Assembly: GCA_963758635.1 (NCBI GenBank)
Contig: CAVWWD010000004.1
Coordinates: 64,001-128,000, forward strand
Direction: 5' to 3'
Length of the DNA: 64,000 nt
DNA from: an uncultured Candidatus Rokubacteria bacterium
Lineage (GTDB): Bacteria; Methylomirabilota; Methylomirabilia; Rokubacteriales; CSP1-6
This document shows, piece after piece, positions 50,350-64,000 of the stretch. The notes under the pieces are model-generated. The model searched no databases and was not told where the DNA came from. It worked only from the letters and a program-made list of their open reading frames with translations. How positions within the stretch are numbered: position 1 is the stretch's first letter; each line of letters begins with the position of its first letter. A program made the translations under genes and the position numbers.

Positions 50350-50727
50350 TCAATCCCGGTAGAGCGTCAGCCCGGGGATGTCCGAGAAGTCCTCCGGATT
50401 GAGCGTCCAGAGCGAGGCGCCGTGCACGAGCGCGCATGCGGCCACCGCGAGGTCGGTCGAGCGCGCCCGTGGGCGGCGCAAGCTTCGGTAGAGCTCGGCG
50501 GCCAGCGCCGCCTCGACGGAGCCGAACGCGACAGCGGCGGTATCCGGGAACAGCGCCTGCTGCGCGCTCGTCTCCTCGTCGGTCCGTGGACCGCGAAGCC
50601 ACTCGTAGAGGACGAGCGTCGAGATCTGTAGCCGCTCGCCTCTCTCCACGATGCGCCGGAGGGTGATGGCATGCCCCCGCAACCCGGCGAGCGACGCCAC
50701 GAGGGCGGACGTGTCGAGGTGGATCAC
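50350..50727 (-). CDS. vapC: VapC-family PIN toxin
   Basis: IHLDTS, YEW..G, DLAVAACAL, TLN..DF. Confidence 0.9.
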   Translation of the reverse strand: MIHLDTSALVASLAGLRGHAITLRRIVERGERLQISTLVLYEWLRGPRTDEETSAQQALFPDTAAVAFGSVEAALAAELYRSLRRPRARSTDLAVAACALVHGASLWTLNPEDFSDIPGLTLYRD

Positions 50728-51014
50728 TCTCCGGCCTTCTCGGCCCGCCTCTTGCCGCTCTCGCGACGAGCCCGACGGATCTCGTCGAGTTCGGCCTGCA
50801 CGTCGTTCGCCGGTCGGGCGCGCCCGGCCGGCGCAAGCCGATCGAGGATCTCCAGCATGCGCCGCCGCTCGTCCTCGTCGAGCTTCTGGCTCCGTGCTTC
50901 GTAGTCGCGGATGGCCTCGCGAACGACCTGGCTCTGCGGTCGGGCCAGCCGGGCCGCCGCTCGGCGGAGACGAGCGACCGTGTCCTCATCGAGCGTGAAG
51001 GTCACCTTGATCAT
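50724..51014 (-). CDS. Ribbon-helix-helix (CopG-like) antitoxin
   Basis: KVTFTLDEDT..L...SQVVREAI; GTGA overlap with vapC. Confidence 0.85.
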   Translation of the reverse strand: MIKVTFTLDEDTVARLRRAAARLARPQSQVVREAIRDYEARSQKLDEDERRRMLEILDRLAPAGRARPANDVQAELDEIRRARRESGKRRAEKAGE

Positions 51015-51022
51015 GGCAGACG

Positions 51023-51041
51023 CCAGCATACCATATGCTGG
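51023..51041. promoter_or_regulatory. Operator palindrome overlapping the TA promoter
   Basis: CCAGCATA-CCA-TATGCTGG overlapping a minus-strand extended -10 (TGgTATGCT). Confidence 0.65.
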
Positions 51042-54550: not shown

Positions 54551-55756
54551 ATGCAGATCGGCCGGCTCGGGGTGTGGGCGTCGATGGACGGCATGACCGC
54601 GGCGGCGGCGGCGGACTTCGCCCGACGCGTGGAGAGCTGGGGCTATGGCGCCCTCTGGGTGCCGGAGTCGGCGGGCCGGAACGTCTACGTGCTCTCCGCC
54701 TGGCTGCTGGCATCGACGCGCACGCTGGTCATCGCCACGGGCATCGCCAACATCTACGCGCGCGATCCGCAGGCCTCGGCGTCGGCGCAGAACGCGCTGA
54801 ACGAGCAGTCCGGAGGCCGCTTCCTGCTCGGGCTGGGCGTGTCCCACGTGCCGCTGGTGGAAGGGCTCCGGGGCCACACGTACGGCAAGCCGGTCGAGAC
54901 GATGCGCGCCTACCTGGAGGGCATGCGACGGGCGGGCTACGCGGCTCCGGCGCCTCCGGAGCCTCCGCAGACGGTCCTCGCCGCCCTCCGGCCGCGGATG
55001 CTCGCGCTCTCCGCGTCCCACGGCGCCGGCGCGCACCCGTATCTGGTCACGGCCGAGCACACGAGGCAGGCGCGCCGCGCCCTCGGCCCCGGGAAGCTCT
55101 TGTGCCCGGAGCAGACCGTGCTCGGGGTGACCGACGCGACGACGGCCCGTCGCGTCGGCCGCGCCTGGATCACGCGGTACCTCGCGCTGACGAACTACCG
55201 GGAGAACCTGCTGCGGCTCGGCTTCACCGAGGGCGACCTGGCCGACGGCGGATCGGATCGCCTGGTCGACGCGCTCATCGCCTGGGGCGACCCGCGGGCG
55301 ATCCGGGCGCGCGTGGAGGAGCACTGGGCGGCGGGCGCCGACCACGTCTGCGTCCAGGCGCTCGACCCCGCGGGGGCCACGCCGGCCCGCCCCGACGAGG
55401 GCCTGCTCGCCGCGCTCGCGCCCTCGGCCTCCGACCGCGCGCTAGAGGCCCGGCCTCACGGGCCGCCCCAGCAGGCTCCGCTCCGCCTCCCGCCGCGTCT
55501 CGAAGACGTGGGCGGAGACCTCCCGCCGCGCCAGCTCCTTGCCGAGCTTCAAGCGCAGGAAGCCGCTGTTGGTGAAGCGCGAGACCTTGAGGTAGTAGCG
55601 CTTCTCGACGTACTGCACGGCGTCCATGTACGCGGCCATGGCGTCGTCGTCGACCTCGAACCCCTCCGGCGGGTGACGCCGCAGCCGGCACGAGCACGGC
55701 CGCGCTACGTGCGGGATCGTTCTCGTCGCGCCGGCGCCCGGCCGCGCGCTCGATGA
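54551..55756 (+). CDS. F420-dependent LLM-class oxidoreductase (homology ends ~55430; true stop uncertain)
   Basis: GYGALWVPE, ATGIANIY.RD, LGLGVSH, AALRPRML, AGADHVCVQ. Confidence 0.85.
   Translation: MQIGRLGVWASMDGMTAAAAADFARRVESWGYGALWVPESAGRNVYVLSAWLLASTRTLVIATGIANIYARDPQASASAQNALNEQSGGRFLLGLGVSHVPLVEGLRGHTYGKPVETMRAYLEGMRRAGYAAPAPPEPPQTVLAALRPRMLALSASHGAGAHPYLVTAEHTRQARRALGPGKLLCPEQTVLGVTDATTARRVGRAWITRYLALTNYRENLLRLGFTEGDLADGGSDRLVDALIAWGDPRAIRARVEEHWAAGADHVCVQALDPAGATPARPDEGLLAALAPSASDRALEARPHGPPQQAPLRLPPRLEDVGGDLPPRQLLAELQAQEAAVGEARDLEVVALLDVLHGVHVRGHGVVVDLEPLRRVTPQPARARPRYVRDRSRRAGARPRAR
55442..55666 (-). pseudogene. C-terminal remnant resembling the extension of acyl-CoA:acetate/propionate CoA-transferases
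   Basis: GFEVDDDAMAAYMDAVQYVEKRYYLKVSRFTNSGFLRLKLG; recognised from memory, not searched; no upstream part. Confidence 0.5.
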
Positions 55757-57145
55757 TGTCCCCCAGGCGCGTAACGTCCTCGGCCCAGGAGCGCTCGCGT
55801 ACATGCGAACGCTAGCCGCAGCCGGGAGGTCACGCAGCTCTTCCGGCAGGTCGTCGCTGCGCGGCATCGTCGCGGCATCGACGAGGAGCGGCACGAGCGA
55901 CCTGCGCATGGTGAGCGCGGCACGCAGCGTCTCCGGAGGGGGACGGGCACGTCGGGCTCAACTTGCGGGACCTCGCGAAGGAGCGTGGCGAACGCCGGGC
56001 CGATGACCAGCAGGACCACGTGCGCGTGGGCCAGGGCGGCCTCTGGCAATGTTTCTCTGTCGGACGCGGAGTCCGGAGGCACGAGCGCGGCAGTTGCGTG
56101 TGCGTGCTCTCCGGCCCGAAGCGATCCGCCAGGTCCTGCCGGAGTCGATAGGTGTGTCGTGGTCTGTCGCCGCGTGAGAGCAGAGGTAGATGCGGAGGCG
56201 GGCCTGGTCGCGGGCAGGAGCCGGCGGTGGCGGCGCCGGCGCCCAGCGCCTTGGCCACCCGCTCGACGAGGCGCGTCAAGGCCTCGGGGCCGCCGTGGAG
56301 CGCGTCGAACGCCAGCGCGTTCCTCCGGGTGAGCGTGCGGATGGCCGGCGGAAGCTCGTCTTCGGTCGGCATGCGGGCGCCGTCGAGCAATACCGGGATG
56401 ATGCGGCCTCCGCTCTGTAGCGCGAGCGCGATCTCCTCGCTCGCGTAGCCCTCCCGCACCCCGTCGCGCGCGACGACGACCAGCGTGGCCACGGCGCGAG
56501 CCAGGATCGACTCCACGCGCGAACGGCGAACCGGGTCCGCGAAGTCGACGAAGTCGCTGCCGATCACCTCCATGTCGGGAAGCCGGTCCTGGAGCCCGCG
56601 AACGAGTGCCCGGTAGACGTAAGCGGTGGCCTCGATGAGGCCGCACGAGACGAAGAGGACCGGCTTGTCGGCCTGCGCGTCGGGCTGCCCCGCCGCGGGC
56701 CCGCGAAGCTGGCGGACGAGCGCCGAGACGTCACGTCCCACGACGGCGCCTCGACTCGGATCGCGTGGAAATCTGTCGGCTCACGGAGTGCGGGCCGGGC
56801 CTGGACGAACGTGTCGAAGGACGCGCCGTCGACCAGCACCGGGACGATGCGCTTGCCGAGCGCGCGCGCCCCCTGGATCTCCGCTGCGACGAGCTGGGTC
56901 TCCTCGCTGACCGCCTGCGTGTTGGCGATCCCAGTTGCGAATGGCCGATCGATCACGACCAGCACGGCTCGCGCCCTCTCGATCCCCGACCGCGCCCACC
57001 CCTCGATGGTCGTTCCTTCTGGCATGAACGCCAGATCACCCATGTCGTCTATGTCCCAGCCCTCTTGGCGCAGGCTCCGGACCAGCCTTCGTGCCGATTC
57101 GCTCGGATCGATGCGCGACGAGATGACATACAGGACGTTACCGGC
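55705..57145 (-). other. Three tandem TIR_2-like domains
   Basis: AAEIQGARALGKRIVPVLVDGA; SEEIALALQSGGRIIPVLLDGARMP..ELP; AALTMRRSLVPLLVDAATMP..DLP. Confidence 0.75.
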
Positions 57146-60100
57146 GACCGGCGCCTGCTCAGCGACTGCCGACGTGTCTGCCCGGTTGCCGCGCTCGGCT
57201 CCAGAGGTGCGCTTGCCGGCGACTCCGACGCCAGGTCTCGCGGCGCATTCGCCGTGGCCTGCGCCAGCGGGATCAGCTCGAGCGCCAGGAGCTTCCGCGC
57301 CACGGCCTCCGCGACGGCCTCCGTCGAGTCGCCACGCGCGAGGCGGATCTCTCCGGCCTCGTGGGCGCGGGGAACGGCGGTGGCATCCAGGGCGCCGGCA
57401 CCCGTCGGGCGCACCGCGGTGAAGCGGTCAACGGCGAGGGAGGCGACGGACGGCGGCACGGCGCCTGCGGTACCTTCCCACATGACCACGTCGAGCTCGG
57501 TCGCGCCGTCGTGCCCGAGCAGCGGCGTCACGAGCCACGCGACGAGCCGTCTGAGGAGCCACGCGACGAGCCCCGTCGGGACGCCCTTCCTGCCCGCCGC
57601 GATCGACCGTGCCAGGAGGAGCGCGGCGAGGCGCCAGGCTCCGAGCTGGATCCGAGGCAGCGTTCCCCACGCGGCGCCGCGGCGGACCACGTGGCAGTCG
57701 ACGGCCCGGCCTGCCGCGTCCAGCTGTCCGTGGATCAGCCGGGCAACACGCTCGGCCGCGGCGAGATCCTCCGAAGAGCAGAGGATCACCATGAAGCGAC
57801 GGACGATACGCGGGACGGGCGGCCGCAGCAGCCGCCGGAAGTCCAGCGAGGACCGCAGCATGCGCGCCTCGAAGTGCGTCCCCGGCAGGCTCGTGAACTG
57901 GGCGGCCGTGATTCCGGGGCGTACCGCCGCTGCGGCGGAACGAGGAACGAAGGCCGTCGACAGGGGCGCCGACGAGACGATCGGCCCGAAGCCCCCGAGG
58001 AGGAGCCTCGTCCTGAGTGGCAGATCTGGGCCCCGGATGACGAGCGCCTGGGCCGAGCTCTCCATGCGGCTTCCGATGACGAAGGGCCAGAGCTCGGCGG
58101 GCGCGTACAGCTCGCGCACCGGCAACGCGGGCCAGGCGTCGGGCTGCGCGTCGGCCCAGTCGTCGAGGTGCACGGGTCGAAGCGGGAAGAGCGCTTCCAT
58201 CTCGCCGGCGAGGCCGGCGGCCCGGAGATGCTCGCCGCCGATGCGCGGGCATCCTCGGGCACGGCGAGGATGGTGACCTGGCCCCCTCGCCAGCCCCCGG
58301 CGGCGCGCGCGGCCGCGCTGACGGTCTGGCCTCTCGTCCCGTTGTGGCACCAGGATCCAGAGCGGCACGTTGCAACGGGTGCCGGGGCGGCGAACCACAG
58401 CCGGATCCATCCGTAGGAGAGCGCGGCGGCCAGCGCCACGAGCCACTCCCGGCCGAGGACCACTCCGGCGTCCAGCCGCCACAGCACGAGCGGCACGAGG
58501 CAGCAGAGCGTGGCGGCGACGAGCGTCTCGCTGACGGCCACGGCCTCGAAGCGCCCGCGCAGCTGGCCGACGACGAGCCAGCGCGGTACACGCCACGCGG
58601 TCCAGCCGAGCGCGGCGAGCAGCGAGCACGGCGACGGCCCAGCCGGCGGTGACGCGAGGCTCTCGATCGGTGTGCCCATGGCGCGCGCCCGCCGTGGATC
58701 TCGACCGTCTGGCCGAGCCAGATCGCCGATACCAGCGCCGCGGCGAGGACCAGCACGCGGAAGCAGGTGTCACGCATCGGCGCGAGCGCGACGCCTGGCC
58801 GGAGCGCCACCGCGCGCCTGCCGTCGCGGCGAGCCACGCCAGTGGTGCCGTGACGGCGGCCCAGAGCAGCGCCAGCGGCTCGATGGCCGCCAGGAAGCCG
58901 AATCCGAGGATGGTAAGCAGAGGCCACGCCGTCGCCGCGAACGTGGCGACGGCGCCGAGCGCCAGGCCTCGGCCCAGCGACGATCCGCGACTGATCGAGC
59001 GCACGACGACCGCGAACAGCAGCGCACGCGGCGAACGGCAGCAGCAGCACGAAGGTCGCCACCTGGCCGGGCGCGACGACCGTCCGGCCGAGGCTGATCA
59101 GGAACCAGGTCGTGCTGAACACGGTGGCGCCGGGCGATCCGGGGACCGCGTAGAAGACGATGGCGAGCGGGATCGCCACCACCACGGCGAGCGCGGCGGT
59201 GACCAGGATGCCCCTGAGACGCACGCCCAGCGCCACGAGCACGAGCAGGAGCGCGACGCGAGCACGAGCGGCAGCGTGCGCACGAGCGGCAACGCCACCG
59301 CGCCGACCATCTGCGCGGCGATCACGGTGACGGGCGTCGCCACGGCCAGGGCGGCGAGCCGACCGAGGCCGCGCGGCAGGCTCGGTGGCACCGGCCGCCG
59401 GCGAGCCGGGCGAGGGGAGGCCGCGGACTCCGCCGGCTTCGTGGCATAGCTCGGCGACGGCGCTCACGCCGTGACCGCCCGCCTCGTCAGCGCGCGCCGC
59501 ACGCGGCGCTCGACCCGCAGAAGGGCCAGCAGCGTGCCCGCGAACGCCAGGGCCAGCAGCCACCAGATGGGCTGCCAGCCGGCCCGGGCCAAGGTGACGT
59601 TGTGGGCGATCAGGCCCTGGAGGCGGGAGACGCCGGAGGGCGCCGGCGCGCGGATACGGATTCAGCCTCCAGATCTGAACCGTATGGGTGCCGCATCGGA
59701 GCGTGGGCTCGTGGTGGAGGCGGCTTGCTGGCGAGCCGCGTCGGCGCGCTTCGCCTCTTCGCACGGACGCTGGCGGCGCGGGGCTCGATCGAGAGCTGTC
59801 GCGGGGGTCTCGGACGCGATCGCCAGGTACTCTCCCGTCGGCCCGATCGCGATCGTGTCGATCGGACGCCGGCGCTGCGGAGCGTGCCGAGCTCGGCGCG
59901 CGTGGTCGCGTCCCAGAGCCGCACGGTGCCGTTCGTGCTGGCCGCGATGATGCGGCGGCCGTCCGGGCTCCAGGCCACCCGGAACACCGTGCCGCTGGCC
60001 GTGGTGGCCGGACTTCCCGGCGAGTAGGCGAGAAACGGCGAGCCGATCTGGGCTCCGGTGTCCGCGTCCCAGAGACGGACGGTGCCGTCACTGAGCTGCC

Positions 60101-63100
60101 GGAGGCGATGAGGCGGCCGTCGGGGCTCCAGGCCACGGCCCGACACTCTCGGTGTGGCCTTCGAGGGCCGCCCGATCGGGGCGCCCGTTTGCACGTCCCA
60201 GATCCGCACCGTCCGGTCGTCGTTGCCGGAGGCGACACGGCGGCCGTCCGGGCTCCAGGCGACGCTGAACACCCAGATCGTGTTGCCCTCGAGGGGCTGG
60301 CCGATCGGGGCGCCGGTCTCGGCATCCCAGATCCTCAGGGTCGCGTCCTCGCTTCCGGAGGCGATGCGGCGGCCGTCGGGGCTCCAGGCCACGCTCGAGA
60401 CGCGGTCCGCCGTGGCGCTGAGAAAAGGAAGCGATCGGGACGACCGCTTCGACGCAGTCCCAGAGACGCAGGGTCGCCTTCCGTGCTGCCCGAGACGATG
60501 CGGCGTCCGTCCGGACTCCATGCCACGCTCCGACGCGCCCGAGTCCGGCGCGACGTCGCCTCGGAGGTGTCGACCGCTCGCCGCGTGTGCGCGTCCCAGA
60601 TCCCCAGGTTCCCGTCCCCGCCGGCCGTGACGAGGCGGCGGCCGTCCGGGCTCCACGCCATGCTCGAACACTCGATCCGACGTGCTGTCGAGCGGCTTGC
60701 CTACCGGCGTAGCGCTCTGCGTGCTCCAGAACCGCAGCGTGCCGTCATCGTCGAGCGACACGACGCGCTGCCCGTCGGGGCTCCACGCCACGCTCACGAC
60801 GGTGGCGGTGTGTCCTTCGAGGGGCACGCCGATGGGGGTGTAGGAGTCGGCGTCCCAGAGACGCAGCGTGTCGTCGGCGCTGCCGGAGAGGATGCGGCGG
60901 CCGTCGGGGCTCCACGCGACGCTCAGCACGGCGTTACGTGTGCCCCTCGAGCGGGGGTCCCAGGCTGGCCACTGACCGCGTCCCAGAGGCGCAGCGTGCC
61001 GTCGGCGCTGCCGGAGACGATACGTCGCCCGTCAGGGCTCCACGCGACGCTCGACACCTGGCCGGTGTGTCCCTGGAGCGGCGCGACGGACGGGTTGGCC
61101 GGTGTTCGCGTCCAATATCTGGATCCGTTCCGTCTTCGTCGCCCGAGGCGAGCAGCCGTGCGTCGGGGCTCCATGCGACGATCCCGAGCCAGGAGAACGC
61201 GGCTGCCGGGCACGGGCTTGCCGGCCACCAGAGCGCCGGTCCGGGCGTCCCAGACCTGCGGCGCAGGACCTCCGACCGCGACGATGCGCTGCCCATCCGC
61301 GCTCCACGCCAAGCGCAGCTCGACGGATCCGCTGTTGTCGAGCACGCGGATCGACGCGCCAGCGTCGGCGTCCCAGAGCCGGACTTCCGTCGCGTCCCCC
61401 GGAGGCGATGCGGCGGCCGTCGGGACTCCACGCCACGCTCGACACCGTGGTGCATGACCTCGGAGCGGCGCGCCGATCGGCATCCCGGTCTCCGCGTCCG
61501 AGATCCGGAGCGTGCCGGACTCGCCCCCCGAGACGACACGGCGGCCATCGGGGCTCCACGCCACCGCGAGGGTTCCCGGCGCCTCGATGAGGAACGGATG
61601 GGCCCGGTCGACGAAGAACGCGTTCCGGGGATCGTCGGCGCCGCCGGCGTCGACCGGCCCGCCGCCGCCGAGCGCCGCGACCAGCGGCAGGAGCAGAAGG
61701 ACGAGCGTGAGCGCGCGCCACCGGTTGAGCCCGAGGTACGGGAGCCCGTCCGCCCAGGCCCAGCGCGCCCACTCCGCGCGGGCGCGCTGGCCGGAAGCGC
61801 GCGAGCCATCCGCGCCAGCCGGGCTCGCGCGGCAGCCGCATGCGGCGCGCCCACGAGGCCCAGCGCGCGGGGGCGCGCAGCGCGAGCTGCTCCGGCGACA
61901 CGCCGCTCATGTAGCCCAGGTAGAGCGGATCGCCCTCCGGGCGCCCGTCGCGGCGGACCGCGAAGGGCGATCGCGCCGATCGACGTCGCTGCCCGGCGGG
62001 CGCTCGAAGCCCAGCTCGATGCCGTCGGTGACGGCGCGCGGCGAGATCTTCTCCAGCAGGTCTCTCCACGACGCGCCGGAGCTCGTCCTGTCGCGCGCGC
62101 GACAGCTCGGCCAGGAGCCTGAGCCGCAGCCAGTCCGGCATGCTCTCGCGCTGGAGCCAGGGCAGCCGGACGAGCCGCCGGTAGTTGCGCGCGAGCGCCG
62201 CGCTCAGCGAGCGCTCGTTCGCGAGCGCGTGGGAGCCGGGCCAGCGCCGCCTTGCCGAGGAGCAGCGTGAGCTCCCATCGCACGATGGGCGCGATCGCGA
62301 CGGCGGCGAGCCAGTGGAAACCCGTGCTCGCCCAGGTAGACGCGCAGCTCCAGGATCAGTCGCTCGCAGCGTCGTCCTCGTCGGGCGGCTCCGCGCCGAC
62401 GAAGCGCCGCGCCGTCGCCCTGGCGCAGGAGGCCGGGAAATCGCTGCGGCTCGCTGAGCGTCACCGTGGAGAGCTGGCCGGACACGCACCAGGTCGCCCA
62501 CGCGCCGAGGGCGGACTCCTCCAGCGGCAGCACGATGAAGCCCGGGGTCCGCGGCGCTCTCCGGCGCGCTCGATCGCCTCCTCGCGCGCGCCCCAGTCGC
62601 GCGGCTCGACCGGCGTGAACAGCGCGCGGTCGCGCCAGCGGTGGAAGTGGGAGCCGAGCGCGTCCGGGCGCCACGCGCCCTGCTCGTCCACGAGCGGGTC
62701 GCCGTCCGACACCACGATGAGCCGCTCGCCGAAGCGCGGCGCCCGCGACCTGCGAGAGCTGCGTCCAGCCGCGCTCGCCCGGGCGCGCTGGCGGCGGCGG
62801 GCGGACCATGAGCGCCTCGGCGCCCGATCGCTCGTCGCGCCGGCGCCGCGAGCAGGAGGATCTCCACGTCGAGGCCTTCGCGCTCGAGCCGCTCCGCCCA
62901 CTGGAAGAAGAGCCGGCCGCGCGGGTCCCGCTCGCTGGCCACGTCCACGAGCAGGAGGTAGCAGGGGTGGATGCGGGCCATGGAGTAGCGCAGCACCGGG
63001 ATGCCCTGGTTGCGGAGCGTGGCCTCGATGGTGCGGCGCACGTCCACGAGCGGCCGCCGGGCCAGCCGCTCGATGTCGATGCCGCGGCTGCGGACGTGCC

Positions 63101-63864
63101 GCGCGAGACGGTCCGCCAGCTCCGGCGGCATCGGAGGCACCAGGCGGCGCGCCTCGATGGCGAGCGGCTCCGGGTCGAGGAACATCGGCTCCGACCGCCG
63201 GCGCAGGCCGCGTCCGGCTCAGGACGAGCGCGGGCAGGCTCACGCCGAGCAGCGCGAGGAGCGGAAGCGCGCCGAGGAGCCAGATCCAGCTCGGGCCGGA
63301 GCTCCACGTTGAAGCGGAACGCGGGCTCGAGGCGATCGACGGCGCGGCCCCTGAGTCACTCCGGACGCGGCGCGACGGGCGGCACGGGCGGCGCGGGGCG
63401 TGTCCGGGGCGTCCGGCCCCGGCCCTCGATCTCGGGACGGACGCGCCTTCAGCCCGAGGAGGTCGAAGCGCCAGAGCGAGGCCGCCGGCGAGGGCCACCA
63501 GCGCGAGGCCGACCAGCGCGCAGGACAGCGGGCCGGACCGCAGGGCGGCGGGGGCGGAGGAGGCGGCGGCGGCGGGGGCGGCGGTGGTGGCGCGCCGCCG
63601 CTCCGGCCCTGCCCACCAGTCGTCGAAGATCGCGTCGAACGGCTCCTGCTGCTCGCCGGACTTGCAGAACACCGGGCGGAGGCGCGAGCGAAGCCGATCG
63701 CGATCGCCCAGGTCGGCCCCGCGCTCTCCGAGCGTCAGGAGGAGCTGGGTCGCGTCGATGGCCTCGGATACGCCGACGGGGAAGCCCGCGGCCCGGAGCG
63801 CCTCGACGAGATCCGCGATGCCCGGCCGCGGCCGAGCGTCGGCCGGCTCGGCGCTCGCGCTCAT
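55705..63864 (-). CDS. Giant multidomain protein (vWA/CoxE-like, WD40, multi-TM, tandem TIR) with many frameshifts
   Basis: LVEALRAAGFPVGVSE..FD.IFD; DVRRTIEATL..YLLLVDV; RLPWL...MPDWLRLRL; WSPDG repeats; hydrophobic 58.3-59.7 kb; three TIR-like units. A single-gene model is inferred. Confidence 0.65.
59700..61580 (-). repeat. WD40 repeat array (~14 units, ~130-bp period)
   Basis: 13 clear VAWSPDG..SG..D.T.R.WD units plus one degenerate unit (IAIGPTG). Confidence 0.9.
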
Positions 63865-64000
63865 GCCGGCCGCGCGCTCGAACCCCTCGAGGAACTCGCG
63901 CAGGATGCGGTGGTCGTCCTTGTGCTTGGAGACCGCCGACGCCGTCTTGCGCACGAGGTCGATCTGCTCCGTGAGCGCCGCGTCCGGCGCCGCCGCCTGC
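63861..64000 (-). CDS. C-terminal tail of an upstream gene, probably a MoxR-family AAA+ ATPase (partial)
   Basis: Only about 45 aa visible (..ASAVSKHKDDH..); ATGA at 63861-63864; identity inferred from the vWA neighbour. Confidence 0.4.
   Translation of the reverse strand, partial: RRRRRTRRSRSRSTSCARRRRRSPSTRTTTASCASSSRGSSARPA

Follow-up and report, generated by a model that had tools for sequence, protein, structure and literature searches.

Organization of the locus

The window, a stretch of 64,000 nucleotides that corresponds to contig positions 64001-128000 of a 6.17 Mb assembly (12 contigs, 70-72% GC), carries on its minus strand two frameshifted genes, A and B, which together span about 2,720 codons of the region 55705..64000 (Table 1). 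A preliminary description had proposed one giant vWA-WD40-TM-TIR protein of about 2,700 codons. The length and the domains agree with that proposal, but a TGA/GTG junction splits the single ORF.

Table 1. Features of the cassette, in window positions unless a contig position is given
Feature	Position	Strand	Remarks
TIR1	contig 129695 to ~130234	-	wholly outside the window
TIR2	contig 129057-129662	-	wholly outside the window
MoxR-type AAA+ ATPase, 3' end	63861..64000	-	gene start outside the window, at contig position 129046
Gene A	59464..63864	-	~1,470 codons; CoxE-like N-terminus, TM1, TM2, vWA-like, vWA-linker, TM3, 14 WD40, TM4, short basic tail
CoxE-like N-terminal helical region of A	63605..63864	-	collinear with intact relatives; named after Kaur 2020 (PMC7159879), without a profile match
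TM1, Pro/Ala-rich loop, TM2 of A	63220..63530, approximate	-	hydrophobic helices
vWA-like domain of A	62500..63100, approximate	-	alignment; both Asp kept, MIDAS serines lost
Helical vWA-linker of A	61850..62400, approximate	-	alignment; common to outgroup vWA proteins L026, L027, L039
TM3 of A	61665..61730, approximate	-	hydrophobic helix
14 WD40 repeats of A	59670..61600	-	Pfam WD40 in several frames; motif count across frames
TM4 of A, then Arg-rich tail and stop	59515..59575	-	hydrophobic helix
GTGA overlap, stop of A and start of B	59464..59467	-	ATGA at the same point in L019, L022, L030, L033, L034, L035, L051
Gene B	55705..59467	-	~1,250 codons; multi-TM block, domain X, domain Y, three TIRs; P0002/P0001 alignments
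Multi-TM block of B	58400..59400, approximate	-	homologue alignment; helical bundle in model of homologue P0034
Domain X of B	57950..58370	-	constant unnamed alpha/beta domain; conserved G-x-H, LFP, W, W-x-x-x-P-x-RE
Domain Y of B	57280..57830	-	second unnamed domain; in 56/114 family members
TIR-a of B	56760..57130	-	Glu kept; missing from 91% identical P0001
TIR-b of B	56250..56690	-	Glu kept
TIR-c of B	55740..56200	-	Thr at the catalytic Glu column

The gene adjoining A on its 5' side had been suspected to encode a MoxR protein, and Pfam, motifs and a tree bear this out. Pfam matches to AAA and AAA_5 are accompanied by weak ones to bpMoxR (17.5 bits, cut-off 27) and CbbQ; Walker A (GNPGTGKS), Walker B, sensor 1 and LRRC motifs are present, and the protein is homologous to ATPases that adjoin vWA-FGE-sulfatase genes. 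A MoxR-clade AAA+ ATPase, with the clade set by Pfam, motifs and homology rather than by a reference tree, therefore lies immediately 5' of the vWA gene, as is typical of the class. In the assembly, MoxR runs in frame into A, and an ATGA overlap lies at 63864; the read-through is most likely an indel error ahead of that overlap.

Further 5' are two genes of about 180 and 200 aa, both read as TIR. TIR1 matches Pfam TIR_2 (E 1.2e-8) and keeps the catalytic Glu in 10/10 relatives. TIR2, for which the catalytic Glu is variable, aligns to TIR1 by hhalign at 88%, and TIRs rank first for its structure model. The gene beyond TIR1 is not common to relatives. VMAP ternary systems are marked by a VMAP-C or VMAP-M third component and by WxhapG and PsWRxa motifs near the MoxR N-terminus. 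The upstream genes scanned contain no VMAP match in Pfam; some clade MoxRs carry an N-terminal Trp-Arg stretch.

Gene A and its predicted membrane topology

Much of what had been proposed for the first part of the chain is found in gene A. The CoxE-like N-terminal region and the two hydrophobic helices are collinear with intact relatives, and in the relatives looked at both the region and the helices are conserved, although the name CoxE is used without a profile or fold match. The motifs quoted for a vWA-like core with a degenerate MIDAS (LLVDVASERD and, later, VVSDG) are present, as are the RLPWL and MPDWLRL motifs of the helical domain and the TM helix that follows it. Profile matches to the vWA region are weak, with Pfam VWA_CoxE (E 0.088) and VWA_2 (E 0.07) each in one relative (2/12), and a weak collinear match (E 0.017) leads to a protein that itself matches VWA_CoxE; a search of the region against the PDB gave no vWA match. 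The domain is a putative vWA, called from motifs, context and these profile matches. The first MIDAS Asp is replaced in 8/10 aligned clade members, in 5 of them by Glu. The linker is continuous with the vWA domain in 9/10 of these, and L051 has an in-frame stop within it.

About 14 WD40 repeats had been anticipated, and the motif count is exactly 14, with a Pfam WD40 match; the repeats probably form two seven-bladed propellers. The propeller changes faster than the vWA domain (54 versus 83% and 51 versus 67%), and TIR2 changes faster than TIR1 (28 versus 70%, one pair). WD40 regions often outpace enzyme-like domains in divergence in any case.

The topology of A was judged from hydropathy and charge counts. 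The Lys and Arg residues in the 20 positions before and after TM1 to TM4, summed over five relatives (L030 was left out, as one helix is under threshold), number 18/5, 10/18, 18/7 and 9/23. These counts fit an arrangement in which the N-terminus, the vWA domain with its linker and the tail would be inside and the WD40 propellers outside. Domain Y contains a hydrophobic stretch that would decide whether the TIR tail of B is cytoplasmic.

Gene B and its family

A multi-TM block followed by TIR domains had been expected downstream, and is present; outside the preliminary list are the two unnamed domains of B, X and Y, that lie between them. Two Pfam TIR_2 matches (E 3.9e-5 and 0.004), those of TIR-a and TIR-b, lie below the curated cut-off, and a profile built from homologous tails was used to locate all three TIR units. 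The catalytic Glu of the TIR NADase is kept in TIR1, TIR-a and TIR-b, and TIR-c is probably inactive, judging from its substitution. TIR-a was gained or lost between the window and its 91% identical relative P0001.

With its swappable tails, gene B stands for a so far unnamed family of membrane proteins that comprises 113 clusters at 50% identity. The core combines, by model and alignment, a helical TM bundle with a Rossmann-like domain in which His, Trp, Arg and Glu residues are conserved. Among 107 proteins scanned with Pfam, the tails are TIR (30), WD40 (18), TPR (6), OmpA (5), caspase/CHAT (3) and trypsin (2); PASTA, IcmF-N and STAND tails were also met. The OmpA and PASTA tails suggest the cell wall rather than killing. 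A TIR1-type domain is fused into B in 5/113 proteins. There is no Pfam match in 42/107, and several proteins finish shortly past domain X or Y, so that a toxic tail is dispensable; L022, P0002 and L035 are tail-less. A constant core with variable effector modules is a feature of the conflict-system class.

Two genes rather than one chain

The TGA at 59466-59464 comes after TM4, and a GTG start overlaps it; GC3 is 0.98 in the frame that precedes the TGA. In six intact relatives, A ends 15-65 residues beyond the same helix. The stand-alone B homologue P0002 aligns from its residue 13 at 59445, such that its start fits the GTG, and the alignment of P0001 reaches 55710. The propeller and the TIRs sit on separate polypeptides.

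A single Toll-like chain of about 2,700 residues, running from vWA to TIR, is highly improbable. In favor of it, the overlap of A and B is four bases long, and since the assembly is full of indels a lone stop there may be an error. However, A stops past TM4 in L019, L021, L022, L030, L031/L032, L033, L034/L035 and L051, with the starts of B unmapped in L021 and L031/L032. A vWA profile matches 0/113 B homologues, the longest of which has 1,399 aa, and a weak search among A homologues of 1,926-5,000 aa yielded two (1,939 and 2,024 aa), both without domain X. The start of P0002 at the GTG likewise speaks against one chain.

The split did not separate unrelated genes: domain X lies 3' of A in 9/9 loci of sufficient length, so a two-chain receptor stays plausible. 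The proposal of a membrane-spanning, Toll-like receptor thus survives in part, in that the propeller is most likely across the membrane from the vWA domain, but propeller and TIRs are not one chain. Toll-like receptors have an LRR repeat ectodomain on one side of the membrane and a TIR on the other. By analogy only, the cassette would share a repeat ectodomain across the membrane from a TIR; unlike Toll-like receptors, it has WD40 repeats, places sensor and TIR on different chains and includes an ATPase chaperone.

Frameshifts in the assembly

A codon-model path requires about 26 shifts in gene A (5.9 per kb) and 13 in gene B (3.5 per kb), compared with 0-1.5 per kb in nine neighbouring gene regions. 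This density favors the idea that the family is functional elsewhere and the copy in the window is a decaying pseudogene, a reading that is compatible with the others but is itself rather unlikely. Against it, rpoB and its neighbours are also broken, rpoB by one shift, and the damage to A and B is almost all indels, with a single doubtful in-path stop over 8.2 kb. At the TIR2/MoxR boundary, the same five single bases, which fall inside a span of about 70 bases, are missing from contigs of both run X1 and run X2, with just 5-6 substitutions across the 310-base piece compared. P0001 is an open frame over 702 residues, the same part of which the window spreads over several frames. Read error is the likelier cause of the frameshifts; since runs X1 and X2 hold relatives, decay keeps a place beside it.

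Conservation and distribution

Loci were collected from a MoxR genome scan (11), a vWA-region metagenome scan (10) and domain X (one), for a total of 22. The clade comprises 16/22, or about 12 after merging of the near-copies L019/L038, L020/L036, L031/L032 and L034/L035. The order TIR1-TIR2-MoxR-A-B is complete in L019, L022, L030, L031 and L051, and it fits about a dozen relatives as far as the contigs extend; L051, located via domain X, carries all five genes. TIR1 is 5' of MoxR in 14/14 clade loci that cover the position, and TIR2 is found in 13/15, missed in L034/L035, where there is a gap of fitting size. TIR1, TIR2 and domain X are all missing from the six non-clade loci, some of which are short. 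In an unrooted tree with long outgroup branches and near-copies left out, thirteen clade MoxRs, including that of the window, form one side of a 100/99 branch, opposite six other MoxRs.

Named hosts include Gammaproteobacteria, Rhodocyclaceae, Burkholderiales, Rhodoferax, Massilia and Methylococcaceae. A six-sequence profile detects domain X in 1/251 genomes of the phylum of the window and in 2/401 and 3/301 of two other groups, with the centre genomes counted in. The five-gene cassette is rare and patchy.

Relation to known systems

Kinship with MoxR-vWA conflict systems and TIR outputs, as proposed in the preliminary description, is supported. The available parts of Kaur 2020 (PMC7159879) describe iSTAND MoxR-vWA systems that have a CoxE-type N-terminus, in 28% of cases also N-terminal TM segments, and third components fused to TIR; their effectors include TIR, repeat, caspase, OmpA and PASTA domains, and action near the membrane is predicted. 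As far as that account goes, the cassette resembles these systems in its order of third component, MoxR and putative vWA, its possible CoxE-like helices, its hydrophobic N-terminal helices, its 5' TIR and its similar effectors, the B tail list overlapping the effector list given there, so much of the domain mix was already anticipated. It differs in that a TIR gene pair fills the iSTAND slot, and in that the vWA tail is a constant TM-propeller-TM unit with the variable effectors on a fifth gene, together with a TM bundle and domain X. A Pfam iSTAND search of the 5' genes, run without a positive control, was blank; the size of the 5' genes and their TIR calls are the reason for considering an inactive STAND domain absent. 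Effectors C-terminal to vWA were not found either: in the six complete clade members looked at, the C-terminal part of A is propeller-TM.

In TERNS3/iSTAND2 systems, as the accessible portion of Kaur 2021 (PMC8195603) presents them, a TIR is common in the 5' gene and a separate downstream gene encodes the vWA-linker plus effector. The 5' TIR and the effectors on their own downstream gene are shared with the cassette. Here, however, the linker is fused to vWA, not carried with an effector on a gene apart from it, the separate gene encodes multi-TM plus domain X, and the 5' partner models as a TIR of about 200 aa, not as a TIR+TERNS3 fusion of about 410 aa. In beta-propeller ternary systems (PMC7159879) the propeller has about four blades, the P-loop often reads GXXXTAKS and conventional effectors are lacking. 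A propeller C-terminal to a divergent vWA and a membrane-linked extra component are common to both, whereas in the cassette 14 repeats follow a TM helix, Walker A reads GNPGTGKS and the effectors are TIRs.

Like the Thoeris type II and TM-effector types, as they appear in the available text of 10.1101/2024.01.03.573942 and 10.64898/2025.12.03.692087, the cassette has TIR genes that stand alone, close to the gene of a TM protein whose C-terminal domain is alpha/beta. Unlike them, it places MoxR, vWA and a propeller protein between the TIRs and the TM protein, and has no Macro, SLOG or SLATT match; Thoeris matches are just weak ThsB/ThcB-type ones. The B core is nevertheless laid out like the membrane-pore effectors of type II Thoeris, which carry a Macro domain, insofar as these sources describe them, and tail-less B proteins are known. 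Both would suit a relay driven by a diffusible ADP-ribose signal from TIR1 and TIR2: on binding this signal through domain X, B would breach the membrane with its TM bundle, and MoxR and A would only assemble or restrain B. Such a relay is considered improbable.

PADLOC has no model that fits the cassette, giving just generic AAA, WD40 and TIR matches. A search of openly accessible papers, with the text rather than the iSTAND neighbourhood table of PMC7159879, did not find a description of the cassette, and the portion available of the ParA preprint 10.64898/2026.10.19.760177 contains nothing on TIR1-TIR2-MoxR-A-B. The five-gene cassette is apparently an undescribed form of MoxR-vWA conflict system that includes a new, polymorphic family of membrane proteins.

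Proposed mechanism

The cassette is read, at a probability of about one half, as a five-gene inner-membrane MoxR-vWA system against invaders, probably phage, that would act as a two-chain receptor-effector. Two separate membrane proteins, their gene order, the conserved TIR Glu and the swappable tails of B are the observations from which it starts; the interaction steps among A, B, MoxR and the TIRs are those that we infer. From what is known of the families, a MoxR ring would grip the vWA domain and, with energy from ATP, build or re-set a complex that joins A and B to the soluble TIR pair. The trigger may be binding of a phage part or an envelope-damage ligand by the propeller or, alternatively, sensing of a phage protein by the fast-evolving TIR2. 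MoxR would then remodel the complex such that TIR1 and the B tail (here TIR-a and TIR-b) cluster, and the clustered TIRs could cleave NAD+, so that the infected cell is arrested or killed. Domain X may serve as a constant docking or ligand-binding hub that lets various tails plug into one trigger. In favor of this model are the collinear cassette, the grouping of the clade MoxRs, the patchy spread, the range of B tails, the charge pattern around the TMs of A, the fast change of propeller and TIR2, and the TIR1-type fusions in B. Against it count the generic PADLOC matches, the putative nature of the vWA domain with its replaced MIDAS Asp, the B proteins that have no Pfam match or finish early, the OmpA and PASTA tails, the general tendency of WD40 regions to diverge, and the scores of TIR-a and TIR-b below the cut-off.

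More tentative is a specific form of sensing by trans-membrane pattern recognition, in which the WD40 double propeller outside would detect phage before or during DNA entry and the AAA+ chaperone would relay this through the inner membrane to the domain X partner with its TIR, caspase, trypsin or cell-wall-binding tail. That sensing falls to the vWA protein has been argued before, in the available text of PMC10907252.

The genes could instead form an envelope-sensing or membrane-complex assembly operon without a role in defence; MoxR-vWA would then act as a chaperone for membrane proteins, with the TIRs as scaffolds. Pairs of MoxR and vWA proteins serve generally as chaperones of assembly, the B tails include OmpA, PASTA and IcmF-N, and PADLOC offers no matching system; the very patchy presence, the swapping of tails with caspase, trypsin and STAND domains and the invariant Glu of TIR1 nevertheless make this quite unlikely.

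Implications

As far as the available texts go, MoxR-vWA conflict systems are genome-context predictions. Because the cassette is compact, has a predicted measurable output in TIR NADase activity and is present in a Massilia genome record, it could be used to test how MoxR-vWA systems switch on. It also contributes a so far unnamed family of membrane proteins in which the tails are swappable and domain X is conserved. Should phage be sensed by the propeller outside the inner membrane, the cassette would show bacterial immunity being set off from across a membrane, which is unusual, and if trans-membrane pattern recognition is the true reading, it would amount to a bacterial functional analogue of Toll-like signalling, built from two chains.

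Edges of the cassette and other features of the contig

The features at either edge of the cassette, together with a gene pair elsewhere in the window, are collected in the table. The ORF upstream of TIR1 has no matches in Pfam, NCBIfam or PADLOC, and no counterpart was found in the loci of relatives. The piece that follows gene B occurs once in the genome and is without a match in an NCBIfam search; it resembles the C-terminus of acetate/propionate CoA-transferases and would then be what is left of a gene bordering the cassette.

Features flanking the cassette or lying elsewhere in the window
Feature	Coordinates	Strand	Remark
Intact ORF, ~190 codons	L001:12527-13110	minus	outside window, immediately upstream of TIR1
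Protein-like piece, ~80 codons	window 55445-55700	minus	directly after gene B
PIN-like toxin gene paired with a small antitoxin-like gene	window 50350-51029	minus	by eye from ORF list

Over the first 200 kb of the contig (C4), predicted frameshifts number 13 per 10 kb at the cassette locus and 1-7 elsewhere, with a second dense region (15-17 per 10 kb) at G000:C4:10000-30000.

Related loci

Gene B varies among related loci. Domain X, its constant alpha/beta domain, is joined in a single chain with domain Y (the second unnamed domain), a TIR1-type domain and WD40 repeats at L052:2-3223. In L030, a complete cassette, gene B is in two parts (L030:13843-17198), a short TM gene and then TIR-TIR-domain X-STAND ATPase, and a giant gene with CHAT and TPR-S lies upstream of TIR1. 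Two outgroup MoxR-vWA loci (L026:8483-16233 and L027:239-7241) carry FGE-sulfatase tails. Both adjoin putative, DGR-like reverse transcriptases, assigned by eye.

In the Massilia cassette (L022), gene A has a frameshift close to its end. Genes for patatin and TPR-S are immediately upstream (L022:5279-8727), suggesting that this cassette resides in a defence island.
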